Shown here piece after piece: positions 22,612-51,076 of a stretch of 64,000 nt of DNA. A model generated the notes under the pieces. That model ran no database searches, was not told where the DNA came from, and worked only from the letters and a program-made list of their open reading frames with translations. The DNA lies in the IMG/VR virus record IMGVR_UViG_3300038345_000144; one strand, given 5' to 3'. Position numbers and translations under genes: made by a program. This DNA comes from a virus. Taxonomy: Duplodnaviria; Caudoviricetes. Position 1 is the stretch's first letter. Each line of letters starts with the position of its first letter.

Positions 22612-22770
22612 AAACGCCCTCCGAACTCGGAGAAATGAAAACTAAATAGTTTCCGTTGGCGAGAAGATAGAGAAACCCCCATAAAGAGAAACCCCCATAA
22701 ATGAGGAAAACAGGTTCAGCAACCCTTACAGATTGAGTCTGTATGAAATACCCCCTGTTATGTAGGGAAC
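22612..22770 (-). CRISPR. Orphan CRISPR-like mini-array A: 3 degenerate type I-E-like repeats, 2 spacers of about 33 nt
   Basis: Minus-strand repeats GTTCCCTACATAACAGGGGGTATTTC (22745-22770), GTTTTCCTCATTTATGGGGGTTTCTC (22686-22711) and ATTTCTCCGAGTTCGGAGGGCGTTT (22612-22636). Spacers 22712-22744 and 22637-22669, with a 16-nt duplicated half repeat at 22670-22685. Confidence 0.7.
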
Positions 22771-23010
22771 TTACCAATAAAGATTATAACAATCCTTATA
22801 ATCACAATCTGGGTCAGAAGAGTAAACTACCATAACCTCATACCCAAGTCGTTTTAACTCTTTTTTAGTAGCCTCACTTCTGATAGTGATTTTCTGTACG
22901 GTATTTTCACCTCTTGCGATAGCCCGCTTAATTGCACCTTCGACACATTCTATTTCGCTTTGAGCCTTTGTCAATTCAGTCATTTCCTTTGCAGTTTTAG
23001 CGTCAATCAT
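22771..23010 (-). CDS. Small phage protein, paralog of 2210-2446
   Basis: MIxAKxAxE...EL..LGY.V...Y.(I/L)YW pattern in both. Confidence 0.7.
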   Translation of the reverse strand: MIDAKTAKEMTELTKAQSEIECVEGAIKRAIARGENTVQKITIRSEATKKELKRLGYEVMVVYSSDPDCDYKDCYNLYW

Positions 23011-23019
23011 AATGCCTCC

Positions 23020-23472
23020 TTAAAGTTTGTAATTAAACGCTTCCAGTGTTCGTAAAAAACAGGTCATATTGGGGGATTTACCTTGTGTTTTCCACATAAC
23101 CCACCCCTTACTATCATATATCTGCATAAGTGCCGATACAATACCAGCACTACGAGAAACACCAGCGTCGCAGTGAACGATAATCATATCTACTCTTTCA
23201 AACCAATGTTTTACAAAGGCACGGACCAGCATAGCGTCTTTATGAGTCATACAATGCTCCTTTGACCCCTGTAAAAACATAAGAGGGTCATCAGCCTCTA
23301 CATCATCAAAAGCCAATGACAGAATAGCCTGTACCTTATTGGTATCAGAGCAAAATACTTTAGGCGGGTCGGTGTCCCAACTCGACTTTATAGATATAAT
23401 TATGGATTTACGAGGGTGTTTTTGATTACAAAATCTTTCGCAAGTTGCCCTCGACACTGCCTTATATATCAT
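23020..23472 (-). CDS. Cys-based protein tyrosine/dual-specificity phosphatase
   Basis: FDD acid loop and VHCDAGVSRS (HCxxGxxRS) motif. Confidence 0.85.
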   Translation of the reverse strand: MIYKAVSRATCERFCNQKHPRKSIIISIKSSWDTDPPKVFCSDTNKVQAILSLAFDDVEADDPLMFLQGSKEHCMTHKDAMLVRAFVKHWFERVDMIIVHCDAGVSRSAGIVSALMQIYDSKGWVMWKTQGKSPNMTCFLRTLEAFNYKL

Positions 23473-25047
23473 TATGTTTCCTCGTATTCAGAAAAATCCT
23501 GATGAATTACTCGAAGTACAACTCGGAACATCGCATTAGCATCTTTCTGATTAGCAATCTCTCCTGCTTCTTCAAAGTTAGCAATACTTTGACGCATCTT
23601 GGTATCAACAATAAACAGCAGAGGAAATTCGTGCTGTTCAGCCGTATCACAATACGCATCAAACTTCTTTTGCAACTCATAACAATCGTCAAGTGTTATT
23701 GTTCTCATAACAAACTCCTTAACCGTCAATCATATCAAAGAACTCTTGTTCAGGGTAATAATTAGACTTATACTCATCGCAAGTTGCACACTCTTCTGTA
23801 TCACAATATGCACAAGAACTGCAATCACGATTACAAGCCTTCTTCATTAACTCTTCAAATCCTGTCATTCTGTCTCCTCCTGAAGATAAATCTTCTTCTT
23901 AATATTGACTATTATCAATAACTCTTCCATTTCCGCAATCAAATTATCGGTTGAAGTAGTATCTCTATTAGCGAGACGCTCTGTAAACCTATGTCTTTTG
24001 AGAATACGGATTGCCTTTCTAACCTGTCTGGGAGTAATGGGCTTGTCGCCCTGATACTTAACCGCCAGTTCGTGTAAAATCTCGTCACTCATTGTCATCA
24101 TCTTCACCAATAAACTTAAATCGGGCATAAAAACCCTCATTCTTCAAAGTCTGCTTAATGCGGTCTAATGTGGACATATCCAAATATGAGCCATTCAAAG
24201 AAATACCCGTAAGCCAAGTATCAGCAGTAATCTCACCAGAGTCCAACTTATCTCGATTGATTATTCCGTGAAGAAAATGCTCTCGTCTTTCGTCCTGTGT
24301 CGATATAAAATAATCACCATTACGCTTAAAAATGGTGAAGGTAACAGGTTTTGCTGTAATCTCTTTTGTAGTAATCATAATTATTCCTCCGTATGATAGC
24401 CAATATAATCACGGATTTCATTAAGAAATTCCTGTGCTTCCTTACCCATAGAACTCATACTGCCTTCGGGTCTGTCCTTGAACTTTGCTGTTTCGATGAG
24501 GTCATCTACGAGCAACTGAACTAACTCAATCTTCTCATTGAGGTTCTTCTTTCTCTGTTCGTCGATAGCGGAGTCCCCGTAAGGCTCCGTGCTTCCAATT
24601 AACTTGTTAACGATTTCGTATGTACTGTATGTCATTTTATCTCACCTCGAAAATTACCTTGTAGCCTAAATCCCTCAAATCTTCTGTAAGTTCCATTAGG
24701 AATGTATGAAGTTCCAAAACACCTACATCAATGTGGTTGAAGTCCATACCTCTCTTGTCCTTTGTTTTTACCTCAAACAAACCACCGAAATTATTTGTAC
24801 TCTTGCTGACGGTATAAAGAATAGGGCGTTCTGGGTCAATACAGTCCTTTGGCTCACGGAACCCAACCTTTACCATCTCATCGTAGGTCATAGGTACTCC
24901 CTGTCGCTCACACTCTTCGATAATATCGTCAATATCGGAGTCATTGAGGCTTTCCCTACCCCTCTGTTCTTCTTCATCTAACTTATCCAAAATGATTTTT
25001 CTGATGAGTGCCTTTCTCTCTTCTTCTGTGAAAGTCTTTGTTGCCAT
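23472..25047 (-). CDS. Six small hypothetical proteins (23472-23729, Cys-rich 23719-23868 read by hand, 23865-24140, 24085-24378, 24381-24635, 24637-25047)
   Basis: Tightly packed ORFs downstream of the promoter at 25080-25109. Confidence 0.65.
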
Positions 25048-25079
25048 TAAGTATCTCCTCCTGACTTAACTATGGTCAT

Positions 25080-25109
25080 ATTATATTAAATTAGCACCTA
25101 ATTTGTCAA
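25080..25109 (-). promoter_or_regulatory. Sigma-A type promoter
   Basis: TTGACA-N18-TATAAT on - strand. Confidence 0.8.
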
Positions 25110-25133
25110 TGGTTACATAAAGAAAAAGTGAAG

Positions 25134-26024
25134 TCAACACTGATGCGACTTCACCTCTTCGAGAGTTAAGATGTCCTTCTTACCGCATTTTTTACACCTG
25201 CAATAGAAGTTTCCGACATCTTTATATACATACGCTAAATTATCAATTTCTATGCCGTTTAAGGTAATGGGGAATGGGTGTGTAGTACCACCACGCAAAA
25301 ACGACCTATAAGAAGAGCATTTGACCGTTACCCCGTCCTCAAACTTTACTATAAAGTTCTTGGAGTTGATATAATTACTGATTTCTGCGGTCATACCATA
25401 CTTGGTCATTACTTTCTCACCCAGTCGGTATGATGCGGGCTGACCATTGTTATTTGGAGTTTTGTGTTTAGGGTGTCCTATCTTACCTCTCTTAAAGTTA
25501 GTGTAAGATTTGTGATAAACCTCCACGCCATCTTCAAATCTGATGTCAATATCCTGCCTGCCTCTATAAGCAATAACCGTCATCATAAGACCACACTTGG
25601 CTCTACTCTGCTCGTTCAGTCTTTCCTGCTTACGATGTTCAATAGTAGCCGTACTGCTACGCTTAAATCTATCGTCAGGGTGCTGTGTGTTGCCTAAAAG
25701 AAAACTTGCATACTTGGTCTTTATTTCTACCCCGTCCTCAAACCTGACCGTCATATCATCGGCATTATTGTATTCAATGATAGTCATAGTGTGACCGAGA
25801 TTATTCTTCTTGGTCTCTCCAACTCTATATTTATAGGCTCTTGAGTAGTTAGGGTTCTTAATGTAGCCCTTCAAATAGTGAGTATATCTCTGTTTATAGA
25901 CTATCGTACCGTCCTCAAACTGAATAGTAACATCGTCGATGTTCTTATAGTCAATTATGGTCATCATCTGTCCGTTAGATGCCCGCATTGTCTCCCCAAT
26001 GCGAAGGTCTCTATAATTTAACAT
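25134..26024 (-). CDS. Tandem-repeat protein 3 (4 repeats of about 52 aa plus C-terminal CxCxxC zinc-binding domain)
   Basis: Repeat RIGE......G.MMTII.Y....D..VxFEDG......Y..F.KG.I.HP; C-terminal GNFYCRCKKCG...H.C. Confidence 0.85.
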   Translation of the reverse strand: MLNYRDLRIGETMRASNGQMMTIIDYKNIDDVTIQFEDGTIVYKQRYTHYLKGYIKNPNYSRAYKYRVGETKKNNLGHTMTIIEYNNADDMTVRFEDGVEIKTKYASFLLGNTQHPDDRFKRSSTATIEHRKQERLNEQSRAKCGLMMTVIAYRGRQDIDIRFEDGVEVYHKSYTNFKRGKIGHPKHKTPNNNGQPASYRLGEKVMTKYGMTAEISNYINSKNFIVKFEDGVTVKCSSYRSFLRGGTTHPFPITLNGIEIDNLAYVYKDVGNFYCRCKKCGKKDILTLEEVKSHQC

Positions 26025-27924: not shown

Positions 27925-29534
27925 TACTTAACACCCATTACATCAAGAACTGCCTGTACTGCTACATTCTTTGCACGACAGAACGGTGGAAGTGGTACGG
28001 CTTTTGGTGCTTTCTGTGCCAAGATATAATCTCTGGTCATAATACGGCAGTCACCACCCTTTTCAACCCAACGCTCCCACGCTCTACGACACGGGATAGC
28101 CTCGATTTCAGCCACCGCCTTACCAATAAACTCTCGGTAAGTAGCCTCGTTTCCAGTAGCGATAAGGTTGAGGTCATCATAGTAGAGTTGGTTAATGTTA
28201 TACAAACTACCACTCTTTGGTGTCCTCTTCTTGTGTTTTGCAATAATTTGCTTCAACTCGACAAGCCTATCAGTTTCTTCCTGTGTAAGTTTTACAGGAT
28301 TTCCTGCTTTATTCTTGGAGTTCTGCTTCTTTACTAAAGCCTTATATTCTTCGAGGATAGCGTCAGGCACACCACTTTCATCTTCCTTGTTGGAAACGAA
28401 CATAGTGTACTTTGACTTTCTATGCACATTATCTACTACATCGAATACAATCTTTGGTCTTGCGTCACCTGTGGATAATGCTCTACCCAACTGCTGTGCA
28501 TATACAGTATTTGAGTATGTTGAACGGTACATAATGATACCTGTTAGGTTGTCAACGTGATAACCCATATTAAGCATTTCACACGAATAAATAAGGTCGA
28601 TTGTTTTGTCCTTACTCTTCAATTTACAGAGTTTCTTGACATTCTTTGCATATTCAGTTGTTTCTGAAGATACGATAGTCTCCCTAATCTTGTGTTTAGG
28701 ATATGCCGTAGCAAACCAACGCCTTACCGCCCTCTGCTTATCCTTCATATGTGCAAAGTTAGAGAAGAAGACGATATACTTCTGGTAATTTGTCTTGATT
28801 TTAGCGGTCTTGAGAGCCATCTTGATATTGACATCCATACGGTTAAGGTTAGCCAACTCAATCATCTTACCATTGAGAAGTTCTCTGGCGTAGCCCTCAT
28901 CTTCCTCATCTACATCAACCTTGAGCATAATATCCTTCTTGATATTAGACACAACATTAGGGTCTGATGAGTCAAAATCACAATAGCAATAGTATGGCTT
29001 CTTAATGATACCATCCTGAATAGCATCGTGGAGAGTGTACTTTGATGTTGTAATATCGTTAAAGAACATCGCAGTAACATCAATCATATCCATTCTATCA
29101 GGGGTAGCAGAAGCACCAAGTAACTTTGCTTTCTTATTATCATTAAGGATAGAACGCAAACCGTCCATTGTCTCTGGAGCACCAATTCTGTGATACTCGT
29201 CGCAAATGATAAGGTCTGTTCCCTTAATTGCTTCCATATCCTTTTCTGTAAGTTGTGTAACCTTCTGATAGGTCATAAATGTTACATCAGGGATATAACT
29301 GTTCATCAACAGTTTGTAGTCCTTTCCATAATAGAAATTGAATACAGCCTGTTTTACAACATCTGTCGGATATAGGTATAAAATCTTTTTATAATGTCCA
29401 CTCTTGATAAACTTTGTAAGAATACCAGTCTTTCCAAAACCAGTAGGTCTTATGATGGCACACTTCTTCTTTTTGTCAAGAAGTTTCAATGCCTCTTCAT
29501 AAGTTTCCTTTCTTAAGCGGTCTATTTTCTTCAT
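27924..29534 (-). CDS. Superfamily 2 DExH helicase/ATPase (ResIII-like)
   Basis: PTGFGKT (I), DEYH (II), SATP (III), MLNMGYH (V), QQLGRAL (VI), VFDVVDN. Confidence 0.9.
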   Translation of the reverse strand: MKKIDRLRKETYEEALKLLDKKKKCAIIRPTGFGKTGILTKFIKSGHYKKILYLYPTDVVKQAVFNFYYGKDYKLLMNSYIPDVTFMTYQKVTQLTEKDMEAIKGTDLIICDEYHRIGAPETMDGLRSILNDNKKAKLLGASATPDRMDMIDVTAMFFNDITTSKYTLHDAIQDGIIKKPYYCYCDFDSSDPNVVSNIKKDIMLKVDVDEEDEGYARELLNGKMIELANLNRMDVNIKMALKTAKIKTNYQKYIVFFSNFAHMKDKQRAVRRWFATAYPKHKIRETIVSSETTEYAKNVKKLCKLKSKDKTIDLIYSCEMLNMGYHVDNLTGIIMYRSTYSNTVYAQQLGRALSTGDARPKIVFDVVDNVHRKSKYTMFVSNKEDESGVPDAILEEYKALVKKQNSKNKAGNPVKLTQEETDRLVELKQIIAKHKKRTPKSGSLYNINQLYYDDLNLIATGNEATYREFIGKAVAEIEAIPCRRAWERWVEKGGDCRIMTRDYILAQKAPKAVPLPPFCRAKNVAVQAVLDVMGVK

Positions 29535-29568: not shown

Positions 29569-29597
29569 ATTATATTATAATAGTCAGCATTTGTAAA
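29569..29597 (-). promoter_or_regulatory. Sigma-A type promoter for the helicase operon, abutting the last repeat of array B
   Basis: TTTACA-N17-TATAAT on - strand. Confidence 0.75.
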
Positions 29598-30022
29598 GGA
29601 ACCTCCGAAAGTCGGAGAGATTTACCGTCTGCGATTACCGAGCCGTCCCTCATTGAATAACCTCCGAACTCGGAGACAATAACACTTAAACTTATAAGAC
29701 TGTGTACCCCTTGAGAAAAACCTCCGAACTCGGAGAAGTATCGTTGGAACTGCATATCCGTGTGACGATTTGTGATAAACCCCCGTAAATACGAGGAAAA
29801 CTTGCAGGTTTAATTGTTGCCTCCTGCCCCATAGAATAACCCCCGTAAACGAGGAACCAAAAGGTAGCACTGCCCGTCAAGCTATACGAGTGAGAAACCT
29901 CCAATTTGGAGAAAAAGTTGCCTCTTGTTTATACTTATGCTAAACCTCCGACACGGAGAATACTGGTTAATCACTGATAGAAAATTTCCAGCATTGAAAA
30001 ACCTCCAAACCTGGAGAAACAC
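29596..30022 (-). CRISPR. Orphan CRISPR-like array B: 8 degenerate type I-E-like repeats, 7 spacers
   Basis: Repeats at 29996-30022, 29939-29963, 29892-29917, 29834-29858, 29774-29801, 29715-29740, 29655-29679 and 29596-29621. Period is 57-60 nt with one of 47. Example: GTTTTCCTCGTATTTACGGGGGTTTATC, resembling Firmicutes I-E repeats of the GTTTT(T/C)CCCGCACACGCGGGGGTGATCC kind. Unique spacers of about 32, 21, 33, 32, 33, 35 and 33 nt. Confidence 0.82.
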
Positions 30023-30034
30023 TTTATTTACTAT

Positions 30035-30064
30035 ATGATACCAAGTTGAATGATTTTTTGTAAA
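30035..30064 (-). promoter_or_regulatory. Promoter driving array B
   Basis: TTTACA-N18-TATCAT with extended -10 TG, ending about 12 nt upstream of the first repeat. Confidence 0.65.
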
Positions 30065-30069: not shown

Positions 30070-30110
30070 AAAAAGAAAAACTCCCTCTAATCGAAATTAG
30101 AAGGAGTCTT
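30070..30110 (-). terminator. Terminator downstream of the topoisomerase operon
   Basis: ACTCC-CTCTAAT...ATTAGA-AGGAGT hairpin with U-tract on -. Confidence 0.75.
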
Positions 30111-30147: not shown

Positions 30148-32259
30148 TTATTTTCCGTGTACTTCAGTAATTTGTTCACCCTTTTTGAGTTTGAGAACTA
30201 CCTTACCACTGGCACTTCTACCCGCCTGAACATTCTGACCAACAGCGTCAATAGTGACAGTTCTCTGGTTAGTGGTAATCTCGATGTTCTCGTCCTCTTT
30301 GAGTAACTTAACAGCGATAACCTCGTCACCAGCAACCTTTAAGCCACATACCGTTGTACCGATAGCCTTACTAATCTTCAAGCAATTATCGACAGGCATC
30401 TTCTTACCAACACCAGTCTTGGTAACAAAGTAGATATAAGGCAAGTCAACATCTTCGGAATAGATAGCAATTACCTTTTCGTTCTTACCGATTTCAGGTC
30501 TCAAATCAGAGATATTGTTACCCGAAGCGGCAGGCATTACTACATCAATAGTATTTGACTTAATCTTATACATATTACCGAGGTTAGTAACCATAGTTAC
30601 ATACTGGTTGCCCTCAACTGTAATAAACTTACTGTCTTCGTCAGTAGACCTAAACTTTGTAGGGTCAACTCTCTTGAGTGTCTGTGCTTCTGTAAGAACG
30701 ACCTTGAATATCTTTTTAGGCTTTGCGACCTTTGGCTTTGTAACAGCAACTCTAATATCCTGCATTTCAATATCTTCGAGTTGTGTTTTTCTTTCCCAGC
30801 CGTACTTATCAACAAGAGCATTAAATTGCTTAACGAATAACTTTGTACGAGCCTTTTCGTCGTTAATCAACTTCTCGTCTTCAGCCTTCTGCTTCTCCAA
30901 AGAGTCCTTTTCGTCATTCAACTTCTGCTTTTCGAGGTTAGCAAGTTTACCGAGTTGTGTAGTTACGATAGCCTCTGCCTGTACTTCTGTGAAGTGGAGA
31001 GCCTTACCGTTCTTACCCTTAAAGGCTTTCTTAACGATTGCCTGCTTTGCATCTTCGGAAGACTTGGAGGATTTGATTGTCTTGATAATCTCGTCAATTA
31101 CATCTAAAGCGGAAAGCAAACCATAGAGGACTTCCAATCTGTGATTAACTTTATCAAGGTCATATTGAGCCTCTTTAACAATAATCTCCAAGTTCTTTCT
31201 TACAAAATATTCGATATACTTCGGAAGTGTGATAGTTTCTGGCTGACCACTCTCACCGATAGCAATATGAAGGTCGGTAATGTTGATTTGAAGAGGTGTT
31301 TTTCTATAAAGAAGTTCTCTTACATATTCAGCAGTACCCTCTTGACACATAATTTCAATCAAGAAGCCGTTTCTATCACAACGGTCTGCCATATCAACAA
31401 TCGGCACATTATCCGTAGTCTCTACGAGTTTCTTAACCTTCTCTCGATAATCTTTAGGGAAGTAGCCGTAAGGGAGTGAATAAATCTTGATAGTGTCACC
31501 TTCAATTTCGGTTTCACCTCTTAATCTGATTGTACCCTTACCAGTCTCATAAATACTGGCTAACTCTGACTTGTTGATGATGATACCACCCGTAGGGAAG
31601 TCAGGGAAAACCTTTGTGCAATCAACCTTACCAGTCTTGATAAAGTTCAAAATCTGGTCTCTTATCTCGAAAAGGTTAGAACTTGACCAAGTAGCCTTGA
31701 TACCATAACCCATTCCTAACTCATTTGTCATAAAGAGTAATGGAAGTTTAGCAACCCAATCCTGCAAGATAGGTTCAGGACACTCCTCGGAATAGTTCTT
31801 ACCCATATGCAAGATGTTTGTGTTATAGAACAACGCATCCTCAAGCACTTCTGCCATTCTGATTTCTGTATATCTCTGATTTGATACTTCAGGACCACCA
31901 ATCAAGGAGCCGTAACCACCGTGACCGTCAAGAAGCGGTACAGGATATACGAAATCTTGAGCCATACGAGCCATAACACCATATGCTCCTGCGTGAGGGT
32001 GGAACCTCATTACCTCACCCTCGACAGTTGCCGACTTGGTATAAGCCTTATTATGAAAGTGTCCGTTGTAGTACATAGCCCAAGCGACACGGGATTGAAC
32101 AGGCTTCTGACCATTAGATATATAGTTCATCTGACGGGATAAGTTAACCTCGTCACTATATTCGTGGAAGTCATCGTGAAGTTCCGTAACAATGTCTCTG
32201 TCAACAATAGGCTTTTCAATAATTTCTTTTTCTTCTGTAATTTTCTTTCTACGAGCCAT
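30148..32259 (-). CDS. gyrA: Type IIA topoisomerase subunit A (GyrA/ParC-like)
   Basis: GQKPVQSR, FHPH, catalytic RYTE, PDFPTGG, C-terminal pinwheel-like repeats; gyrase versus topo IV not resolved. Confidence 0.9.
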   Translation of the reverse strand: MARRKKITEEKEIIEKPIVDRDIVTELHDDFHEYSDEVNLSRQMNYISNGQKPVQSRVAWAMYYNGHFHNKAYTKSATVEGEVMRFHPHAGAYGVMARMAQDFVYPVPLLDGHGGYGSLIGGPEVSNQRYTEIRMAEVLEDALFYNTNILHMGKNYSEECPEPILQDWVAKLPLLFMTNELGMGYGIKATWSSSNLFEIRDQILNFIKTGKVDCTKVFPDFPTGGIIINKSELASIYETGKGTIRLRGETEIEGDTIKIYSLPYGYFPKDYREKVKKLVETTDNVPIVDMADRCDRNGFLIEIMCQEGTAEYVRELLYRKTPLQINITDLHIAIGESGQPETITLPKYIEYFVRKNLEIIVKEAQYDLDKVNHRLEVLYGLLSALDVIDEIIKTIKSSKSSEDAKQAIVKKAFKGKNGKALHFTEVQAEAIVTTQLGKLANLEKQKLNDEKDSLEKQKAEDEKLINDEKARTKLFVKQFNALVDKYGWERKTQLEDIEMQDIRVAVTKPKVAKPKKIFKVVLTEAQTLKRVDPTKFRSTDEDSKFITVEGNQYVTMVTNLGNMYKIKSNTIDVVMPAASGNNISDLRPEIGKNEKVIAIYSEDVDLPYIYFVTKTGVGKKMPVDNCLKISKAIGTTVCGLKVAGDEVIAVKLLKEDENIEITTNQRTVTIDAVGQNVQAGRSASGKVVLKLKKGEQITEVHGK

Positions 32260-32261
32260 AA

Positions 32262-34229
32262 TTACTCCTCCGTTGCTGAACCATCGTACTCAACCGAGCC
32301 GTGATAGAGGTAATCCTTACGAGCGTAAGCATTACTACCCTTAACTAACTCTAACCACTCTTCAAACTCTTGTTCGTCCTTAACTACCAAACGCTTCAAG
32401 TTACGAGTAGCAGGGTTAACCAACTGGTCATAAGTGTCGTCCTGTGACATTTCACCAAGACCCTTTGCTCTGGCAACTGTATATTTCTTACTCTTGTTCT
32501 TTTCTCTCCACTTGTTGAGTTCTGCATCGTTCTGGAAGAGAATATACTCACCATTAGGGAAAGTAACCTTATACAACGCACCATATACACGATAGATATA
32601 GCCGTTATATATAAGTTCAGGGCAAATTCTGTGGAATACCGTGATAAGAAGCATAGCAATATCAGAACCGTCGGCATCAGCGTCCGTTGTAATGATAATC
32701 TTGCTATATCTCAACTTCTTTTCGTCAAAGATAAGTCTAACGGCATTACCGTCTTCCATACTCAAACCGAGAGACTTAATAATAGCCATAACCTCACCAT
32801 TCTGCAAAATCTTTGAGGCAGAAACATCTTTACAGTTAAGTATCTTACCTCTAATAGGGAATGATGCTTGGAAAGAACTGTCCTTAACAGCGTTGATAGA
32901 CCCTACGGCAGAGTCACCCTCGCAAATCATAAGTTCGCACTTACTTCTATCACGCTTGTCCTTTGGATATGCGTCAGAAAGTTTTGTAGGAAGGTCAGTA
33001 AAGAGAGCCTTTGCACCCTTACCCTTCTTAACTTCACGCATCTTCTCACGGATTTTCTTGACTTCCTCTTCTTCTTTTCTCTGCTGAAGAGCCTTTTCTG
33101 TCATCATCTTGAGGCAGTCCTGATTATTACATAACCAAGTAGCAAAGTCACCACCGATAACGGCATTGATGATAGAAGCGTCAATATCGTCAACGATAGA
33201 CTTATTCTGTGCCTCGTATCTAACAGAAGCGGTTGTCATATTAAATACTACATATAATCCCTTTGAAACTTCGCTGAATGTGAAATTTTTATCCGACTTC
33301 TTGAGTAATCCCAAATCGGTTGCACACTTATTAACGGCTCTTACAAATGATGTCTTGAAAGCACCCAAGTGAGCACCACCAACAGTCGCACCGAGATTTA
33401 CGAAAGCCTCGATATGCTCATCATAGTTAGCAACCATAGTGATACAAATATTGAGAGAGTCGTCACCCATAGTTCTATTAGTAATGAACCTCTGTGGGAA
33501 TACCTCGTTATGTTCAACTTTCTTTGATACATACGCAGGCAATCCCTCTGGTTCGTGGAATACCTCTGTTGTACCATCGTGCGTATATTCAATTGTAAGG
33601 TTAGGACAGAACGCACAAGTCGGAGCAAACCAAGACTTGAGTGCATATACATTAGGAACATTCTCATTAAAGAATTGAGGGTCAGGAGACCAAGTAACTT
33701 CTGTACCTGAAGGTCTCTTTTTCTTACCAACTTCCCTCTTCTTGAGAAGTCCGTCCACAAAATCAAGTGACTCATACTCTCCGTCTCTATAAGAAGTTAC
33801 ATTTAACTTCAAGGAGAGCCAGTTAGCCAGTTTTGCACCGATACCGTTAAGACCGAGGGCAGAACCAGCATATACGCCGTTGTCTGTGGACTTACCTGAT
33901 GTGTTAATCGTATCAAACGACCTCTGCAAGATTGTCTTACCGTCTTTCATCGGCTCACCAGTCTTACGGTCAATACCTGGGTCGTTGATGATAAATCCTT
34001 GTCCATTATCCTTAACGGAATAAACATTATTTTTAGTATCAGAACTAACCGTAATGTGGTCGCCGTTACCGATAATGTGTTCGTCAATGGAGTTCGCAAC
34101 AATCTCTTTAATTAAGTTTGTGTTGTCTTTTGCTGAACCAAGATAAGTAGACGGTGCTCGTCTTGTGTACTCTCTTGGGTCTTCTTGATAAATACTTGAG
34201 TTGTCATAAGAATGTTTTACTTCACCCAT
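32262..34229 (-). CDS. gyrB: Type IIA topoisomerase subunit B (GyrB/ParE-like)
   Basis: EIVANSIDE, KDNGQG, GLNGIG, EGDSA, PIRGKILN, DADADG, KGLGEM. Confidence 0.93.
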   Translation of the reverse strand: MGEVKHSYDNSSIYQEDPREYTRRAPSTYLGSAKDNTNLIKEIVANSIDEHIIGNGDHITVSSDTKNNVYSVKDNGQGFIINDPGIDRKTGEPMKDGKTILQRSFDTINTSGKSTDNGVYAGSALGLNGIGAKLANWLSLKLNVTSYRDGEYESLDFVDGLLKKREVGKKKRPSGTEVTWSPDPQFFNENVPNVYALKSWFAPTCAFCPNLTIEYTHDGTTEVFHEPEGLPAYVSKKVEHNEVFPQRFITNRTMGDDSLNICITMVANYDEHIEAFVNLGATVGGAHLGAFKTSFVRAVNKCATDLGLLKKSDKNFTFSEVSKGLYVVFNMTTASVRYEAQNKSIVDDIDASIINAVIGGDFATWLCNNQDCLKMMTEKALQQRKEEEEVKKIREKMREVKKGKGAKALFTDLPTKLSDAYPKDKRDRSKCELMICEGDSAVGSINAVKDSSFQASFPIRGKILNCKDVSASKILQNGEVMAIIKSLGLSMEDGNAVRLIFDEKKLRYSKIIITTDADADGSDIAMLLITVFHRICPELIYNGYIYRVYGALYKVTFPNGEYILFQNDAELNKWREKNKSKKYTVARAKGLGEMSQDDTYDQLVNPATRNLKRLVVKDEQEFEEWLELVKGSNAYARKDYLYHGSVEYDGSATEE

Positions 34230-38987: not shown

Positions 38988-40292
38988 TTACTCCTTTGTT
39001 GCCATCATTTGGGCTGTTATTATCCATTCTACATACTCAAACTCTTCGAGCAATCTGTTACGGATGCTGGAGTTTGAACCCTCGATATAGTTATGACTCG
39101 GTAACAACTTCTCTGCTTCCTTACAAGCCTTCTTTGTGTAAAGAGCAATAACATTAAGCGTGTCACCGTCAACATCTGCGGCGAGTCCGTCATAGATGAT
39201 AGGATTTGTCTGGATAACATACTTCTCGTCATCATCAGCAGAGAAATATGGTATCATTCCCATAATGGACTTTGCACCAATTGTAGGTTGGCGGTTCAAA
39301 AGAACATAATAATGTCCATCTTCCAAAATCTTGTTAACCTTATCAATGTCGGTCTTACCTGTTGTCTTATCCGTACAATCAGCGTAAATCTTCGGATAAA
39401 GTGTCTTAATGAACCAACTACCAATGACAATCTTATCTTCAGGCAAACGGCAGTTATTTGTCATAACGGCTCTAATCATACCTGTCTGGGGCTGTCCCCT
39501 CAACTCATTGGCGATGATGTTTCTCTTGTTCTTGGCAAGTATCTGGAACAAAGACTTATACAACTTCTCAAGGGTTGCACAAGTGACATATCTGATGTTC
39601 AACTCGTTAATCTTTGTCAGTCTGCTGTTTACAGAGAACTTATCATACTTGAGTTTCTGTCTGATAATCTTGATATATAACTGGTTCAACTGTCCGAGGA
39701 ACCTCTTACCATTCTGGAAAGTAATCTTTCTGAATGATGTGTGAGGGATAGCGATGAGCCTGTGAGTGTTTCTCTCATACCACTTACGGATGTCCTCCGA
39801 GTCCTCGATATAGAACAGAGCGTCCTTACCGTAGAGAATACGGTCTTCCTCGTAGATGGACATATCCTTCTTGAGGTCAAACTCAACAATCTGGTCTTCT
39901 TCGTCTCCCTTTCCCTTATAGATAAACCACTTATAGTATAAGAGGTTATACATCATATCCATTGTTGCTTTGTCGAAATCAAATTCGTCATCGCAGTTCC
40001 AGTCAAAGACCCAGTTAGGGAGGTCAAAGCCAAACTTTACATAGAAGTTAGGCATCCTTCTCTTATCAAGAACACGGCAACCACAGGCTTCACAGATACC
40101 AGGTCTGGTCAAAAGACCGCACTTACAGTGTCCAAACTTACCGAATATTTTTTCGGAGAAGATACCTTCCTCGTCAAAAAGATATTCACCAGTTACGCTG
40201 TCCTTAATCTTACGAGCCTGAAAAACCTTATCTGAAGTAACTTCATTCATAGGGTTTTCTTTAATCTTAATCGGCTTCACTGTTATCTTCAT
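38988..40292 (-). CDS. rpoC: RNA polymerase beta' N-terminal/catalytic part
   Basis: GIFSEKIFG, CKCG...CEACG zinc finger, RAVM, LLNRQPT, catalytic AADVDGD (DxDGD). Confidence 0.9.
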   Translation of the reverse strand: MKITVKPIKIKENPMNEVTSDKVFQARKIKDSVTGEYLFDEEGIFSEKIFGKFGHCKCGLLTRPGICEACGCRVLDKRRMPNFYVKFGFDLPNWVFDWNCDDEFDFDKATMDMMYNLLYYKWFIYKGKGDEEDQIVEFDLKKDMSIYEEDRILYGKDALFYIEDSEDIRKWYERNTHRLIAIPHTSFRKITFQNGKRFLGQLNQLYIKIIRQKLKYDKFSVNSRLTKINELNIRYVTCATLEKLYKSLFQILAKNKRNIIANELRGQPQTGMIRAVMTNNCRLPEDKIVIGSWFIKTLYPKIYADCTDKTTGKTDIDKVNKILEDGHYYVLLNRQPTIGAKSIMGMIPYFSADDDEKYVIQTNPIIYDGLAADVDGDTLNVIALYTKKACKEAEKLLPSHNYIEGSNSSIRNRLLEEFEYVEWIITAQMMATKE

Positions 40293-42546
40293 TCGAGTCC
40301 TCTTCCTTTCCCATAATAGAGTTAATTTGCTGTAAATCCCTCTCGTCCAAACCCTTATAGTCTACGACATTGTTCTCAATGGAGATACTGTAACCCATTG
40401 ACTTAACAACCTCAATAAAGTTAAGGGAAAGTCTTGTATTTTCTGGAAGTTCTCTGGTTTCCTGCATATCAGCAATCATTCTGTGGGAGCCAATATACTT
40501 TGTAACACTTCTGATACCCAACTCCTTGAGGATATTAGGGCAATCGTTTGCTACAAGGTTCATCTTCTCCATTTCACCGAACTTCAGTGTTCTGCCGTAT
40601 GCGGAGTCTGCCGATGACTCGGAGATATGGGTTGCGGCGTGGTGGTACAGTCTCATAATATAGTTGAGACCAACAGGTACGGTCTGCTTCTGTCCCTTAT
40701 ACTCCAATACAGAGTTCTTGGCATATTCCTTCATCTGGTCAGCATAACGCTCAATCATAATAGCAATAAAGTCTTCGTTTTCACCGTATTCAATATTGCT
40801 TGCCAATGCCCAAGCCTCAAAAATCTGACCAAGTGAACCTCTACGCATTGTAGAGAAACCTGAAATAACAATTTCCATAGGTCCTGCCTTCATATCGCCT
40901 ACATCGTGCAAGAGACGAGGCATCTGGTCGTCAGGAAGGATAAGTCCTACTGTACCCTTCGCACCGTGGAGGTTGGTAATCTTATCACCAAGTCTGAACG
41001 GGATTTCCCAAGACAGGAATACACGGATATTGTTCTTATCTACCTCATCAAATCTGTCAATCTTGAAGTTCTCATAGTTTGAAAGCACAGCGTCACTCTT
41101 GTTAGGGAATAACTGCTTAAGAGCCTCTAAATTAAAGTCCTGCTTGGCAATAAGAGCAAAGTCCTTTGAATTCTTATTTAAGTATAAAATTGTCTTGTCA
41201 AAAGTTCTTAACCTTTCGGCAAATGACTTTGAAATAATCATTGAGTCGGCGGCAGTATATCCCTCAATGTCGCAAAAACAAACCCTTGCCTTAATTCTGT
41301 GTGTAAGAGGGTCAATTTCCTCTGCTAACGGAACTGCCTGTGATGTCATTTTAGCGTTCATCATAATACGCTTCGGCTTATCGTTGTTACCAAACGGAGC
41401 CTTTGACAAACAAGAAAGACGGGCTTTCTGCGGGTCGGTGAAATACTCGTACATATTCTTCTGTACGCCGTTCTCATCTACAATCCACAACATTCCCTTC
41501 TTCGTTACAACATTATCAAGCAACAATCTCTGACGACCTGCTGACTGTGATGTTACAGTCTTGAATGAGTCAAAGAAACCGTTAGTGTCTGTGTAAGTAA
41601 ACGCAGGCTTGAATTTGGTCTTCTTATCATCATCACCATTATGGTCGTAATGATTGCTTGGAGCGTTGTCGTTACCATTGTAAATATTTACGCAAGTTCT
41701 GAAGTTTTCAAGTGCAAAAATAAGGCTTTCGCTACGAACAAGGCAACCTTCGAGGTTCTCGCCTGATGTCGTGTACTGCTTTGCCTTTGAAGCAATAATA
41801 GTGTTGATACCCAAGAGTATCTTCTTTGTAGGTTGAGCAAACTTCTTGGAGTTAAGGATAATATCCTCAAAGTATTCCATTCTGGAGAACTTATAATTGA
41901 AGATACTGTCGCTCCTGAACTTTGGAACCTGTCTCAAAGCCTCTGTAAAGTTATCCAGTGTGAGAGGCTCCTTGATAATAGACATCAACAAGCACTTGGA
42001 CCTGAAAGTGAGGTTATTGAATACCTCTTCTTTTGTAGGCTCAAACTGGTTTTTAGGGTCTTTGTAAGTACATTCAAAGGTGTCAGAAGGAATATCATAC
42101 TTCCAACCGTTATCACCTCTGATGGTCTGGAAATCCCAACGAGCCAAAGCCCCGTAGAAGTCCTTAACGGCTGTCACACGGGTTACATAGTGGGTTCTGT
42201 TGATAATCCAGCAAAGGTCAATACAGGGCAACGGCATCGCCCCTAATTTGAGACGCTTGCCGTTGTAATCACCTGAAATATCGACACACATAGAGTGAAA
42301 ATTTAACTTCAACTGATATGAGTTCTTTGTCTGTTTAGACGCATCATAGTTAAGTACGCCGTTGTTAAAATATCTGGCTAACTTACAGGGTGAGTCCGTA
42401 TTCCAATACTTCTCGCAATCCCTGTCGATGCTTGCCTGAATATCAGCAAAGTTGTCATTTTCATCAATAGGAGTTAGCCCCAAAAAAGACTGATTTGCAA
42501 CAGTCCAAAAGGCTAACTCTTTGGCATAAAGTTCCGTAATTGTCAT
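40267..42546 (-). CDS. rpoB: RNA polymerase beta subunit (compact)
   Basis: RIMMNAKMTSQAVPL (cf. RALMGANMQRQAVP), GDKITNLHGAKG, RGSLGQIFE, YIMRLYH, KFGEME. Confidence 0.9.
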   Translation of the reverse strand: MTITELYAKELAFWTVANQSFLGLTPIDENDNFADIQASIDRDCEKYWNTDSPCKLARYFNNGVLNYDASKQTKNSYQLKLNFHSMCVDISGDYNGKRLKLGAMPLPCIDLCWIINRTHYVTRVTAVKDFYGALARWDFQTIRGDNGWKYDIPSDTFECTYKDPKNQFEPTKEEVFNNLTFRSKCLLMSIIKEPLTLDNFTEALRQVPKFRSDSIFNYKFSRMEYFEDIILNSKKFAQPTKKILLGINTIIASKAKQYTTSGENLEGCLVRSESLIFALENFRTCVNIYNGNDNAPSNHYDHNGDDDKKTKFKPAFTYTDTNGFFDSFKTVTSQSAGRQRLLLDNVVTKKGMLWIVDENGVQKNMYEYFTDPQKARLSCLSKAPFGNNDKPKRIMMNAKMTSQAVPLAEEIDPLTHRIKARVCFCDIEGYTAADSMIISKSFAERLRTFDKTILYLNKNSKDFALIAKQDFNLEALKQLFPNKSDAVLSNYENFKIDRFDEVDKNNIRVFLSWEIPFRLGDKITNLHGAKGTVGLILPDDQMPRLLHDVGDMKAGPMEIVISGFSTMRRGSLGQIFEAWALASNIEYGENEDFIAIMIERYADQMKEYAKNSVLEYKGQKQTVPVGLNYIMRLYHHAATHISESSADSAYGRTLKFGEMEKMNLVANDCPNILKELGIRSVTKYIGSHRMIADMQETRELPENTRLSLNFIEVVKSMGYSISIENNVVDYKGLDERDLQQINSIMGKEEDSNEDNSEAD

Positions 42547-44779: not shown

Positions 44780-44807
44780 TTCTCAAAATTCCTTTCAACA
44801 TTCTACA

Positions 44808-45290: not shown

Positions 45291-45303
45291 TTATAAATTC
45301 CTT

Positions 45304-45720
45304 TCAACTTTTTCCGTATCTGTAAGCCACATAACTAATAACTTTTACTTTATCAAGAATGTATATGTGGTAGGTCTTCTTATCTGCGTCACCCTGCTCA
45401 TATTCAGGAACTAACGACTTGGGATTGAAATGCCTTACCATCCAGTCATAGACATACTGATTAGCACCGTTCCAATTGTAACGGATTTCATCGGGCATAC
45501 CTCGCTCATTGTATAAAGTAACAAGGGCTTCACTTAAAACCTTTAAGCCATAGCCCTTATGCTGATACATCGAGTTCGTGAACCACTCGGAGATACTCCA
45601 AATACTGCCATCACCATTTAGAGAGATTTTGCACTCACTAATCTGTGTATGGTTGTCCTCTTCGTAGATAGTTACTCGTAACCCATTTAATAAGTTTTCC
45701 TTGACAATTTTAGATGCCAT
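45304..45720 (-). CDS. GNAT-fold acetyltransferase-like protein
   Basis: YQHKGYG (Q/RxxGxG) motif A. Confidence 0.55.
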   Translation of the reverse strand: MASKIVKENLLNGLRVTIYEEDNHTQISECKISLNGDGSIWSISEWFTNSMYQHKGYGLKVLSEALVTLYNERGMPDEIRYNWNGANQYVYDWMVRHFNPKSLVPEYEQGDADKKTYHIYILDKVKVISYVAYRYGKS

Positions 45721-46528: not shown

Positions 46529-46531
46529 TAC

Positions 46532-47524: not shown

Positions 47525-47532
47525 AACATTTA

Positions 47533-48242
47533 TTAGTCCTTTCTGTTGTTATCTTCATCGTCTAAAAATTTGGCTAACTTGTCGGGGTCAACCTCAAGAA
47601 GTCTTTTTGCTTGTATCTTGTTGAGTTCAATACCCTTAACAATGCCAGTAGCAATACAACTATCTTTAATTGTATTGGTAGGTCTCCAGTCATCACTGGT
47701 CTTAAAAATTGCTATATATGTTTTCATAGCATAGCCTCACTTCTGCTCCCATTAACAACCCCTATATTGTCTGCCTACTCTGTATGCTTTCTTTCTCAAT
47801 TCCTCAATAGCATTATCTAACGCACGACAATATGCCTTGTTTTCCTTGTAATTATCCCTTAATTCAGACAAATTATGTGTGTCCTGCATAATGTCATTCT
47901 GCATTTTCGTAATCTGTTCGTCTAATTCTTTACTTGTCATTTTTTTTGCTCCTTTATGTAATTTATTTTTCAGTATTAAACCCTCATATCTGCTCCGCAA
48001 GTAGGGCATACTCCCAACGGCTCTGTAATCATCGTGTGAATTATTGGTAATTTGTATTCTCCGCACTTATCACATTCAAAACAAACAACATCTTGCCCGA
48101 AATTATTTTGTTTGTGTCTTGTTATCCACTTACCGTGAGGTCTTGTGTATTCCTTCTTTGCGTCCTCGTAACCTTTCTTATATCCATTAGCATAGAACTC
48201 TTGACCGTCTCGCAGTTCATTATAATTAGTCATTTTTCGCAC
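47533..48242 (-). CDS. Three small proteins including zinc-ribbon protein 47976-48242
   Basis: GYKKGYEDA...RPHGKW...CDKCG...CPTCGA. Confidence 0.6.
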
Positions 48243-48394
48243 CGCCTTTTTGTTCTATCGGTTCGTGATTATAGATGCCACAATACTGACTTACTTCTGT
48301 ATATGCGTCAGGACATTCCTTTAATTCAATGTGTCCTGCATACGGACATTGAGTACAACCTATTTCTTTCTTATTCATTTTAGTTATCCTCCTT

Positions 48395-49063
48395 TTACCA
48401 AGTTACTGCAAGGTCATATCCCTCTGGATATGTATAAATAAATGTACCTGTATCAAGTACAATACCCTCACCAAGACTTGTTTCAACGATAGAGCCGTAA
48501 GGGTGCAATCTCCAGTTAGCGGCGACTATTACATACTTACCGAACATCTTTGCTCCGTCCTCACGCTCCCAATACTTGCCTTCAATACCCTTCTTTGTGG
48601 CATTTGAGCAAACAAGACCCATAGGGAGATTGTAATAAGTCTCTCTATGACCATTAAACATATTAACCCCCTTCTGCTTTGTAAGAGGGTCATCAATAGC
48701 CTGATAGCCGAGGATTGTCTCTGTAATATCAACATACTCGTCATACAGGGCTGTGTAACTTGTTTCGAGATTGTTATAATCTGTGGAAAGAGCATTATAG
48801 TTGGACTCAAGATTTGTATAGTTAGTTTCCAACTCATTGTGGCTCTGCTGTAATGTATTGTAGTTGTTTTCAAGTGTCGTACAGTTGTTTGTTACCGTCT
48901 GAAGGTTAGTTGTCAACTGCTGGTTTTCTACTGCCAGTTCATCGGCTCTTGCATTAACCTGACTAAATCTGATATGGTTTGAAATAATATTGGCTCCGAA
49001 AGCCATAACCAAAATCACCGCAAACAAAAGTATCTTGTTGTTTATCTTTCTATCAAAAATCAT
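48395..49063 (-). CDS. Membrane-anchored coiled-coil protein with C-terminal 3D-like (cell-wall) domain
   Basis: N-terminal TM, heptad repeats, ETYY...VAAN...PYGSIVET..GEGIVLDTG...DLAV. Confidence 0.65.
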   Translation of the reverse strand: MIFDRKINNKILLFAVILVMAFGANIISNHIRFSQVNARADELAVENQQLTTNLQTVTNNCTTLENNYNTLQQSHNELETNYTNLESNYNALSTDYNNLETSYTALYDEYVDITETILGYQAIDDPLTKQKGVNMFNGHRETYYNLPMGLVCSNATKKGIEGKYWEREDGAKMFGKYVIVAANWRLHPYGSIVETSLGEGIVLDTGTFIYTYPEGYDLAVTW

Positions 49064-49095
49064 TAGTTTACCTCTCTTTTATGTAATGTAAACAT

Positions 49096-49125
49096 ATTAT
49101 ACCAAACGAATTTACAATTTGTAAA
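49096..49125 (-). promoter_or_regulatory. Sigma-A type promoter
   Basis: TTTACA-N18-TATAAT with extended -10 TG. Confidence 0.75.
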
Positions 49126-49138
49126 GGTTTACACTAAA

Positions 49139-49564
49139 TTAGTGATTTTCGAGATAATTCATCACCTTGAAGAGTGACTTCTGTTCAATCTGACGCACTC
49201 TTTCAAAGGACATATCATAGATTTCTGCAAGGTCTCTGAAAGTATAGCACTTATCGGCATTTATACCTCTTCTCTTATACAGAATATCCTTTTCCTGCTC
49301 CGTGCATACAATATCAATAGCCTTAATAATGTCCTCGGCGGTGATTTCTCGTCTTGCGTGAAGCCTCTTATAAAGGCAAATGCTCTGGAAAATAATACCT
49401 GCAATACCAAGACCTACGGCAATAAGCGTATAAAGTCTGATTGTAGGGAATATGATTGATGCTCCTACGAAAAGGAGTGTAGCAATACTGCCTGCTACCA
49501 GTGAAATAATGTCCTTTCTGACTAATTCCTTATTAGGCTTTCTGTTAATTGTAATGTTTCTCAT
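49139..49564 (-). CDS. Two-TM protein fused to a sigma-70 region 4 domain
   Basis: Two hydrophobic helices, then EQEKDILYKRRGI...YTFRDLAEIYDMSFERVRQIEQKSLFK. Confidence 0.75.
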   Translation of the reverse strand: MRNITINRKPNKELVRKDIISLVAGSIATLLFVGASIIFPTIRLYTLIAVGLGIAGIIFQSICLYKRLHARREITAEDIIKAIDIVCTEQEKDILYKRRGINADKCYTFRDLAEIYDMSFERVRQIEQKSLFKVMNYLENH

Positions 49565-49595
49565 TGTAGTAATTTCCTCTCTTTAAGATGGTTTC

Positions 49596-49625
49596 ATTAT
49601 ACCAAAGAGGTTATCTTTTTGTAAA
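49596..49625 (-). promoter_or_regulatory. Sigma-A type promoter
   Basis: TTTACA-N18-TATAAT with extended -10 TG. Confidence 0.75.
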
Positions 49626-49691
49626 GTGCCGTATAACAATAATAAAAGGGTGGTATTACCCACCCTTGTTATTTTTAATATGTCAGGTTGA

Positions 49692-50642
49692 TTAGACCTT
49701 GAGGACCATATCGTATGCACGGTCTACGAGAGGATGTCCGTGGATAACCTTCATATAACGGTTGATGTTGCCGTTAATCGTGTTCTTGCTGTCTGCGTGG
49801 TCAACCCAGTCGGTGACGGCTGACAGGAAACGATAAGCGTTGTTATCGAAGTTTGCGAGGTCGTCCTTCTCAAGATAGACGGACATCAACTGTGTTCTTC
49901 TAATCTTGATGTTCTCGATAACCTTCTCGGAGGCTTCCTTCTCGCCAACCTTTACTACGGGAAGAGGGAACAGTCTCTCGATGAATTCCTTTACCTGCAA
50001 AGGAGACAACTTAATGCCGTTGAGAACCTCTGCTTCTCTCTGGAGGGCTTCCATATACTTTGAGCCTGCAAGGAGAACTTCCTGTGCCTCTGCAATCTTG
50101 CCGTTAGGGTCGCCAGAGTGCTTGCAACGCCATACTCTTGATACAGCAGAGAGAGGCATATTGAAGAAGTTAGAGCAAGCAACTCTACGAGGAACTACGA
50201 GAGCCGTAACGCTACCAGTACCGTCGTGGGAGTTCTTGAATACGATGTAGCACTCCAACTTATCACCGAATACGGAATACTCTTCTGCTACTCTACCTTC
50301 GAGCCAAGTGGAACGACCACCCTTGAAGGAACCGCCCTTTACGAACTCAACGGACTTGTCGTTGTAAAGGTGCTTTGTGAACTCGAAAGCCTCTGTGTTC
50401 TGAACCAACTTGTACTTGTCAGTTACGATACCGAGTGCCTTGCCGTCCTCTTCACGAACAACCGTCTTGGTGTTAGGGATGAGTACCTTCTCACCGTTGA
50501 GGTCTACATAGGTGTCGTGTGTGTCTACGGTCCAGTTCAGACCTGTCTGTGCCAAAATGTCTTCGTATGATGTAGGATTAACGATGTCCTCACCAAAACC
50601 TGTCTCCAACTTTTCCTTTGTCAAAAATGTTAAATCTGCCAT
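49692..50642 (-). CDS. DUF932 family phage/plasmid protein (start reassigned to MADLT)
   Basis: GLNWTV, LGIVTDKYKLVQN.EAF, NSHDGTGS, RVACSN, KH; GGAGG RBS before the ATG at 50642. Confidence 0.85.
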   Translation of the reverse strand: MADLTFLTKEKLETGFGEDIVNPTSYEDILAQTGLNWTVDTHDTYVDLNGEKVLIPNTKTVVREEDGKALGIVTDKYKLVQNTEAFEFTKHLYNDKSVEFVKGGSFKGGRSTWLEGRVAEEYSVFGDKLECYIVFKNSHDGTGSVTALVVPRRVACSNFFNMPLSAVSRVWRCKHSGDPNGKIAEAQEVLLAGSKYMEALQREAEVLNGIKLSPLQVKEFIERLFPLPVVKVGEKEASEKVIENIKIRRTQLMSVYLEKDDLANFDNNAYRFLSAVTDWVDHADSKNTINGNINRYMKVIHGHPLVDRAYDMVLKV

Positions 50643-50694
50643 CTTTAATTCCTCCTGAATAATTTTCGTAAGGTGTTTTATCTTTAACGACCTC

Positions 50695-50724
50695 ATATTA
50701 CCATAGAAACTTTCAGGCTGTCAA
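50695..50724 (-). promoter_or_regulatory. Sigma-A type promoter
   Basis: TTGACA-N18-TAATAT with extended -10 TG. Confidence 0.65.
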
Positions 50725-50808
50725 GTGTATTTTCGGCAAAATATTCAAAAAAATGCCAAAATGGTCAGATTTGTCCTATTAAACGGACTAAAATGGGTAA
50801 AAAGGCAT

Positions 50809-50847
50809 AAAAAACTCCCCGTAAAATCAATTACGAGGAATTTTTTT
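50809..50847. terminator. Terminator closing array C (resembles a repeat-derived hairpin)
   Basis: AAAAAACTCCCCGTAAAATCAATTACGAGGAATTTTTTT: hairpin flanked by A- and T-tracts. Confidence 0.7.
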
Positions 50848-50864
50848 AATAATGTGGATTGCTA

Positions 50865-51076
50865 TTACAGCCCCCATAAATGAGGAAAGTTGAACGAGTT
50901 GTCAATGAACCCTTGTCAGCTTTGAACAACCTCCGATGCGGAGAACAGCCGTTTTACGCCAAGATTTGCTGAACAACCCCCGAAACGGGGAAACTTGTGC
51001 ATATATTACACAAGTTCTTTGTGGACTAAACCGCAGAGTTTGAGTCCTTTAGAACAACCCCCGAAACGGGGAAAAT
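50865..51076 (-). CRISPR. Orphan CRISPR-like mini-array C: 4 degenerate type I-E-like repeats, spacers of about 57, 22 and 33 nt
   Basis: Minus-strand repeats TTTCCCCGTTTCGGGGGTTGTTC (two copies, in 51052-51076 and 50971-50994), CTGTTCTCCGCATCGGAGGTTGTTC (50924-50948) and ACTTTCCTCATTTATGGGGGCTGTAA (50865-50890; core identical to a repeat in array A). Confidence 0.7.

Follow-up and report, generated by a model that had tools for sequence, protein, structure and literature searches.

Three intergenic loci within a 64,000-nucleotide stretch of phage DNA, taken from IMG/VR virus record IMGVR_UViG_3300038345_000144 (Duplodnaviria; Caudoviricetes) and here called the window, carry short hairpin repeats separated by unique spacers. 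We conclude from sequence comparison that the three loci, arrays A, B, and C, are very probably CRISPR arrays that feed the phage's own adaptation-less type I-E Cascade-Cas3 system. The initial annotation of the window had reported 3, 8, and 4 minus-strand hairpin repeats at these loci and had interpreted them as a cas-less guide or decoy library.

A covariance model was built from 18 equal-length units from the window and three relatives and was run on both strands of the 64 kb with filters off. At E ≤ 0.05, the model matched 14 copies, all on the minus strand and all within the three intergenic loci, and the next-best matches in the window had E > 0.1 and were unrelated. Likewise, a strict hairpin scan and a looser scan that permitted one G-U pair found repeats at the three loci only. 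The 14 matches and one degenerate copy in array A reproduce the 3 + 8 + 4 repeats originally reported, and the repeat cores said to be common to A and B and to A and C were also recovered. Array A (22610-22774, minus strand) has three repeats and two spacers and begins directly past the stop codon of a 79-amino-acid (aa) open reading frame (ORF; 22771-23010). Its repeats lie at 22743-22774 (degenerate; E 2.5), 22684-22713, and 22610-22639 (terminal), and in the homologous array of the 95%-identical relative L001 (L001:16761-16907) the degenerate first repeat is a perfect hairpin. Array B (29594-30023, minus strand) has eight repeats, with model-match 5′ ends at 30023, 29965, 29918, 29861, 29803, 29742, 29682, and 29624, and seven spacers; its terminal repeat has a deviant handle. 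Array C (50863-51078, minus strand) begins 12 nt past the stop codon of an AAA/CYTH gene and has four repeats, at 51050-51078, 50969-50997, 50922-50950, and 50863-50892 (terminal). The first interval of array C is long (81 nt) and contains an unrelated small inverted repeat. We also note a perfect 16-nt tandem duplication in array A (22669-22701) that includes the 3′ half of repeat A1 and its handle and is not found in L001.

The spacing of the repeats was regular and their spacers were unique, as is expected of type I-E arrays. Repeat-to-repeat periods were 57 to 61 nt in 7 of the 11 window intervals, the others being 47, 47, 74, and 81 nt, and every interval of the arrays in relatives L001 and L003 had a period of 57 to 61 nt. 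With 8 nt of each repeat counted as handle and 5 nt as 5′ flank, the window spacers were 31 to 33 nt long, with the exception of two of 21 nt and two longer ones. The two 21-nt spacers, like the 48- to 50-nt periods of a related phage array (L064, below), fall about 12 nt below the norm, a shortfall that equals two Cas7 steps and is suggestive only. The near-identical repeats expected of type I-E arrays were not found: all 14 window repeats were distinct, with a mean pairwise identity of 0.67. Adjacent repeats were only weakly more alike than nonadjacent ones (permutation P of 0.08), and no duplication of repeats upon acquisition is claimed. Tandem Repeats Finder did not detect the arrays, and Rfam returned no family at the gathering threshold and one chance match to dinG-RNA (E 1.6), in line with the suggestion that repeat divergence might hide the arrays from standard CRISPR finders.

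The window repeats consist of a 5- to 6-bp stem, a loop of 3 to 5 nt, and a GTTnnTC tail of 7 to 8 nt, and the order typical of type I-E, a hairpin followed by a 7- to 8-nt handle, was found in all 14 model matches. The type I-E shape, handle, and spacing first read from the sequence were thus borne out. Moreover, the stems were conserved in structure while diverged in sequence, again as had been proposed: in 46 units from the window clade and an unrelated phage, 228 of 228 stem cells were paired, and compensatory changes were present in four of the five stem pairs (35 cells), a result that none of the 500 shuffles and no slid control equaled. A covariance scan and a search for covariation in relatives had been put forward as checks on the annotation, and both upheld the repeats as described. 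The G-U pairs were valid on one strand only, the sense strand of the flanking genes. From these pairing patterns, we conclude that the hairpin structure is under selection. Of the 29 internal repeats, 26 retained the GTTnnTC handle, and of the 7 terminal repeats, none did (Fisher P of 1.4e-5). Because the tail of a terminal repeat would never become the 5′ handle of a CRISPR RNA (crRNA), this distribution is as predicted by selection on crRNAs.

Within the window, PADLOC and Pfam analysis of 96 ORFs found no cas family except for a weak Cas4b-like PD-(D/E)XK match, in agreement with the earlier statement that the 64 kb contains no cas gene. A cas operon was reached by walking outward with exact-protein look-ups. 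Window positions 51155 to 64000 are 100.000% identical to a Logan contig (SRR1725612_2579, 184,946 bp; loci L051 and L055), on which cse1-cse2-cas7-cas5-cas6e-cas3 is encoded on the window's minus strand (L055:13874-20321), approximately 11.7 to 18 kb past the window end or at approximately 75.7 to 82.2 kb in window-equivalent coordinates. The products are Cse1 (526 aa), Cse2, Cas7 (432 aa), Cas5 (184 aa), Cas6e (193 aa; L055:16337-16918, minus strand), and Cas3 (800 aa), in which Pfam recognized HD, DEAD, and C-terminal domains, and the same operon was present in two strains that are 98 to 99% identical. No cas1 or cas2 was found in the window or within approximately 8 to 10 kb of the operon. 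Cas6e and Cas7 are 55% and 61% identical, respectively, to their counterparts in G006, a second phage described below. Cas6e aligns with solved Cse3 structures, including across the C-terminal glycine-rich loop, and an N-terminal histidine that we take to be that of the E. coli protein appears conserved. The term "cas-less" therefore does not apply, as the same genome encodes a complete type I-E interference set of Cse1, Cse2, Cas7, Cas5, Cas6e, and Cas3 past the window end. The effector, which had been imagined as possibly an unrecognized phage protein, is an ordinary and recognizable Cascade, and neither loading into a host Cascade nor an RNA anti-CRISPR decoy function needs to be invoked, since the phage's own operon suffices. 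We conclude that the cognate cas genes of a type I-E system are present in the same genome, beyond the window.

Five phage lineages that carry this system, the window included, were compared. A two-unit pattern scan of IMG/VR identified G006, a complete 467-kb AT-rich phage without a homologue of the window helicase that lies downstream of array B, and an exact one-repeat pattern had no match in IMG/VR. In G006, genes for Cse1, Cse2, Cas7e, Cas5, and Cas6e are followed by five to six diverged repeats and then by a Cas2-Cas3 fusion, and at least 13 model matches were found, at several distant genome sites. A further lineage of this phage Cas7 family, L061, has an orthologous operon with a cas2-cas3 fusion and also cas1, and its Cas7 is 66% identical to that of G006. 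The L061 array (L061:15995-17490) is canonical: it has 24 repeats, each of 28 nt and nearly identical to the others, that recur exactly every 61 nt. The L061 repeat is laid out like the window units (TT, 5-bp stem, and 7-nt handle), its handle is letter-identical to the handles of window repeats B4 and B7, and the window-derived model matched the L061 repeats in register. We conclude that the window repeats are homologous to those of an orthologous canonical system.

Repeat uniformity and cas1 occurred together among the five lineages. In L061, where cas1 is present, the 24 repeats include 2 distinct sequences, and the mean pairwise identity is 1.00. L064, with no cas1 in ±10 kb, has 27 repeats, of which 24 are distinct (mean identity 0.84), and the handle GTTATTC in 26 of the 27; L063, also with no cas1 in ±10 kb, has four model matches, all distinct (0.72). 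G006 has no match to Cas1 anywhere in its complete genome, and its repeats are diverged as judged by eye, with no identity figure. With the window, there were thus four lineages with diverged repeats in which no cas1 was found and one cas1-bearing lineage with uniform repeats, and we suggest that repeat uniformity may depend on active adaptation. We note that in L064 a 178-aa gene of the public record (L064:14956-15492) is almost certainly an artifact, as it extends across the CRISPR array.

The cas operon and its surroundings have features of their own. The Cas7 protein (L055:17468-18766) has an insertion of approximately 21 residues, rich in lysine and glutamate, relative to that of G006. 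The 60-nt gap between cas6e and cas3 (L055:16277-16336, minus strand; approximately 78.1 kb in window-equivalent coordinates) consists of two hairpins, the second of which resembles an array repeat, has an 8-nt tail, and ends 2 nt short of the cas3 ATG. No ordinary Shine-Dalgarno sequence precedes the cas3 start, and the hairpin may provide Cas6e-dependent control of cas3. Just upstream of cse1, a radical-SAM gene contains a LAGLIDADG-domain intein in one strain (L062:5865-7772, 635 aa) and is without it in another (L054:6927-7772, 281 aa).

Close relatives indicated that the arrays change by whole units. L001 and L002, with DNA approximately 95% identical to the window and a helicase 98% identical, have six units at the array B position compared to eight in the window. 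Three spacers of window array B are common to L001, three are found only in the window, and one window spacer is swapped for two others. In L003 and L004, with a helicase 68% identical, there is no array at that place and there are five to six units elsewhere, and the two contigs differ from each other by units. Thus, the arrays vary by whole units between strains that are 95 to 98% identical. The proposal of a fixed, selected guide set was therefore upheld in part, as the apparent lack of cas1 and cas2 speaks for such a set, but the differences in units between such close strains show that it is not frozen. No repeat copies were found in more distant helicase relatives, including two complete genomes of 394 and 250 kb, and neither repeats nor Cas7e nor Cas6e were found in G001 and G002, complete jumbo-phage relatives by helicase. 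In a 60% relative, L005, the helicase gene is followed by a 1.5-kb noncoding stretch (L005:11600-13100) that holds a different, longer hairpin-repeat family, with approximately four copies 100 to 120 nt apart, and a tRNA-like sequence.

The genome surrounding the arrays is that of a large phage. Window genes lie nearly all on the minus strand, and the G+C content is approximately 39%. Pfam identified split β and β′ subunits of a multisubunit RNA polymerase (38988-42546), a type II topoisomerase (30148-34229), helicases, a DnaB-like helicase, a primase, a thymidylate synthase, a CCA-adding enzyme, and two proteins with sigma-70 region 4. DNA relatives of the region were absent from INPHARED in both near and distant search modes, and the window helicase as a single-protein query had no relative in IMG/VR; the metagenomic relatives of the window are contigs of 135 to 500 kb. 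On the basis of this gene content, the lack of an INPHARED relative, and the size of the related contigs, we conclude that the window is a piece of an uncultured jumbo phage. Its complete genome is larger than 300 kb, and samples in which the phage occurs include SRR1725612, SRR31968882, and ERZ27297851. A small PQ-loop gene (window 52154-52441) is present in the window and in L051, and the 98%-identical L050 has a 280-bp gap at that place.

Sequences resembling host-type transcription signals flank each array on the minus strand. Directly upstream of array B is a putative sigma-70-like promoter (30035-30064; TTTACA, 18 nt, TG-TATCAT) with an extended −10 element, located just past the topoisomerase A terminator (approximately 30071-30107). 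A second sigma-70-like promoter, assigned to the helicase (29569-29597; 11 of 12 matches), lies between the last array B repeat and the helicase start codon at 29534, and its −35 element overlaps the degenerate tail of the terminal repeat. Array A is followed on its 3′ side by a long hairpin and T-run that resemble an intrinsic terminator (22554-22604), after which comes a sigma-70-like promoter of the next gene. Similarly, array C is followed by an intrinsic-terminator-like hairpin and T-run (50809-50840) and then by a strong promoter of a DUF932 gene. The phage encodes its own split RNA polymerase and two sigma-70 region 4 proteins, and the arrays and many genes have host-type −35/−10 promoters, a combination that suggests the use of two transcription machineries.

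From these signals and the operon, we infer how the arrays may be transcribed, cleaved by Cas6e, and loaded into Cascade, and what they may target. The arrays would be transcribed on the minus strand, array B from its own sigma-70-like promoter and arrays A and C as 3′ extensions of the upstream gene that end at the intrinsic terminators. The phage Cas6e, the gene for which is approximately 15.5 kb past the window end, would bind each 5- to 6-bp hairpin and cut at its 3′ base, giving crRNAs of approximately 58 to 61 nt that consist of a 7- to 8-nt 5′ handle (GUUnnUC), a guide of approximately 31 to 33 nt, and a 3′ hairpin. These crRNAs would load into a phage Cascade of Cse1, Cse2, Cas7, Cas5, and Cas6e, which would recruit the phage Cas3 to matching DNA, probably that of competing mobile elements or of the host. 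Without recognizable cas1 and cas2, the repeats would no longer be copied at acquisition and would therefore have diverged, with selection acting on the hairpin and handle only, and the arrays would change through gain and loss of whole repeat-spacer units.

Spacer targets were sought in several collections. Arrays B and C gave chance matches alone against INPHARED (E up to 10), as did array B against 401 genomes from the phylum of a metagenome-assembled genome that carries a related contig (chance-level matches of 18 to 35 nt only). Two array B spacers that are conserved between strains had no match in IMG/VR as exact patterns and none in JGI metagenomes with every sixth base left free. When all spacers were compared to all of the loci considered here, only the homologous arrays and chance matches of 13 to 18 nt were found. 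The canonical L061 array likewise had no target in INPHARED, and matches of seed plus protospacer-adjacent motif (PAM) to the phage's own sequence were not above chance.

Several points weigh against the interpretation of the loci as working arrays of an adaptation-less type I-E system. The searches yielded no protospacer for any spacer in the collections searched and hence no PAM and no target class. The absence of cas1 and cas2 pertains to the window and to approximately 8 to 10 kb on either side of the operon, which is part of the genome. The stems (5 to 6 bp) and the repeats (25 to 28 nt) are shorter than those of canonical type I-E systems, two intervals leave spacers of just 21 nt, and two more are irregular. 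Finally, the alignment that gave the covariation had been fitted to the model, which favors the result, and three homologous pairs occur among the seven arrays used to test the handle, so that these amount to approximately four independent arrays and the P value is optimistic.

The lack of full-length targets in any collection searched could indicate that the guides are hard-wired regulators rather than weapons, which would enter the same Cascade of the phage and, by partial complementarity, repress host or phage genes or tune cas3. Regulation would also be in keeping with the embedding of the arrays in phage operons, the missing adaptation module, and the repeat-like hairpin directly on the cas3 start region, and regulatory mini-arrays and cr-like RNAs have been described (Shmakov et al. 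2023, bioRxiv 10.1101/2023.03.03.530964). We nonetheless consider regulation an unlikely primary function, as the HD, helicase, and C-terminal domains of Cas3 point to cleavage, the turnover of spacers between close strains speaks for an arms race rather than fixed regulation, the seed-plus-PAM self-matches stayed at chance level, and the collections searched probably lack the relevant rumen or gut elements. A broader scenario, which we offer tentatively and regard as doubtful, is that after loss of cas1 and cas2 the arrays became a hard-wired, scattered guide library in which the repeats were free, or were selected, to diversify and the guides act largely via partial complementarity. If so, diversification of the repeats would keep the copies from recombining with one another and make the arrays harder to detect, and the guides would control host or phage genes rather than give classical immunity.

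That the arrays act as decoys, forming an RNA anti-CRISPR, or supply guides to a host type I-E Cascade is very unlikely: some viruses are known to carry solitary repeats and mini-arrays that make use of host Cas proteins, and many hairpins could titrate a single-turnover Cas6e, but this phage has a full Cascade and Cas3 of its own, and its repeats share homology with an orthologous phage system's canonical array. Decoys would need neither spacers of approximately 32 nt nor a 5′ handle that is conserved except in terminal repeats, and the lack of cognate cas genes expected of a virus with such a mini-array does not hold here, as judged by the operon. It is equally improbable that the arrays are decaying, nonfunctional relics left by the loss of cas1 and cas2. 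Decay would explain why every repeat differs, why some spacings are irregular, and why units such as the first array A repeat, the B2 handle, and the half-repeat duplication are degenerate; it would not explain stem cells that pair in 100% of cases with compensatory changes, a handle conserved exactly where a crRNA needs one, an effector operon intact in several lineages of the same pattern, or a dedicated promoter at array B. Least probable of all is that the hairpins are unrelated to CRISPR and represent weak terminators or pause sites, sites for other RNA-binding proteins, or repetitive extragenic palindromic (REP)-like elements. Four units do fit a loose terminator pattern of a short G+C stem followed by a T-rich segment, but the hairpins occur at three loci only in 64 kb, on the sense strand only, and with a period of approximately 60 nt, and eight tandem terminators upstream of a helicase gene are implausible. 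Moreover, the repeats share homology with those of a bona fide array beside cas1 and are present with the Cas6e/Cas7e operon and absent without it. Separately, the strand-specific G-U pairs, the variable loop length, the period of 60 nt, and the association with cas genes led us to set aside CsrA-type sponges, nut-like antitermination sites, iterons, and dimeric-operator palindromes as candidates.

CRISPR-Cas systems have been described in huge phages, where they mostly lack adaptation genes and have compact arrays (PMC7162821; PMC11656645). The system reported here resembles those of huge phages (Al-Shayeb et al. 2020, PMC7162821) in its origin from a phage of >200 kb, in an interference module without cas1, cas2, or cas4, in compact arrays (median of six repeats in that study), and in a presumed use against competing phages or the host. 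It differs in that the type I example there was a I-C variant and ours is a type I-E system with Cas6e and Cas3, in that the arrays are not beside the cas genes and are scattered in operon leaders and 3′ untranslated regions, and in that every repeat is different. The detectors used in that study, MinCED and CRISPRDetect, rely on repeat identity and would probably miss these arrays. Because such arrays are invisible to repeat-identity finders, surveys of phage CRISPR systems may wrongly label cas operons as array-less and undercount arrays.

Viruses also carry mini-arrays and solitary repeat units that copy host repeats (Faure 2019, Medvedeva 2019, and Camara-Wilpert 2023, as summarized in PMC11656645). 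Like these, the window arrays are short CRISPR-derived elements in a virus, remote from a cas locus. The mini-arrays, as far as that summary describes them, are near-exact copies of host repeats with zero to two spacers that use or block host Cas proteins, whereas the window repeats match the phage's own system, are diverged, and are accompanied by up to seven spacers. Standalone repeat-like elements, degenerate in sequence and regulatory in role, have also been described within cas loci (Shmakov et al. 2023, bioRxiv 10.1101/2023.03.03.530964). They share with the window arrays degenerate repeats kept by selection, and the hairpin before cas3 (L055:16277-16336) resembles this class. Those elements, however, are single units or two-repeat mini-arrays in cas loci with spacers that match a cas promoter, whereas the window arrays are longer and remote, and no self-target was detected for them. 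In full-text literature searches, we came across no account of a type I-E system in a phage with genome-scattered arrays in which every repeat is different.

The window system also resembles canonical type I-E systems of the E. coli, Thermus, and Lactobacillus type, represented among the phages by L061. Shared features are the 5′ flank, the hairpin, and the 7- to 8-nt tail of the repeat, a period of approximately 61 nt, spacers of approximately 32 to 33 nt, a degenerate terminal repeat, and the Cse1-Cse2-Cas7-Cas5-Cas6e-Cas3 set. The window system is unlike them in a repeat identity of 0.67 rather than approximately 1.0, in 5- to 6-bp stems with loops of 3 to 5 nt, in the lack of leader-proximal cas1 and cas2, and in having several small arrays scattered over the genome. 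Type I-E crRNA biogenesis thus appears to tolerate, and selection to maintain, repeats that are about two-thirds identical, provided that the 5-bp stem and the 7-nt handle are kept, and the diverged repeats serve as a natural mutational map of the requirements of Cas6e and Cascade. Nonrepetitive arrays have been engineered on purpose to counter recombination, and the phage arrays resemble those deliberate designs.

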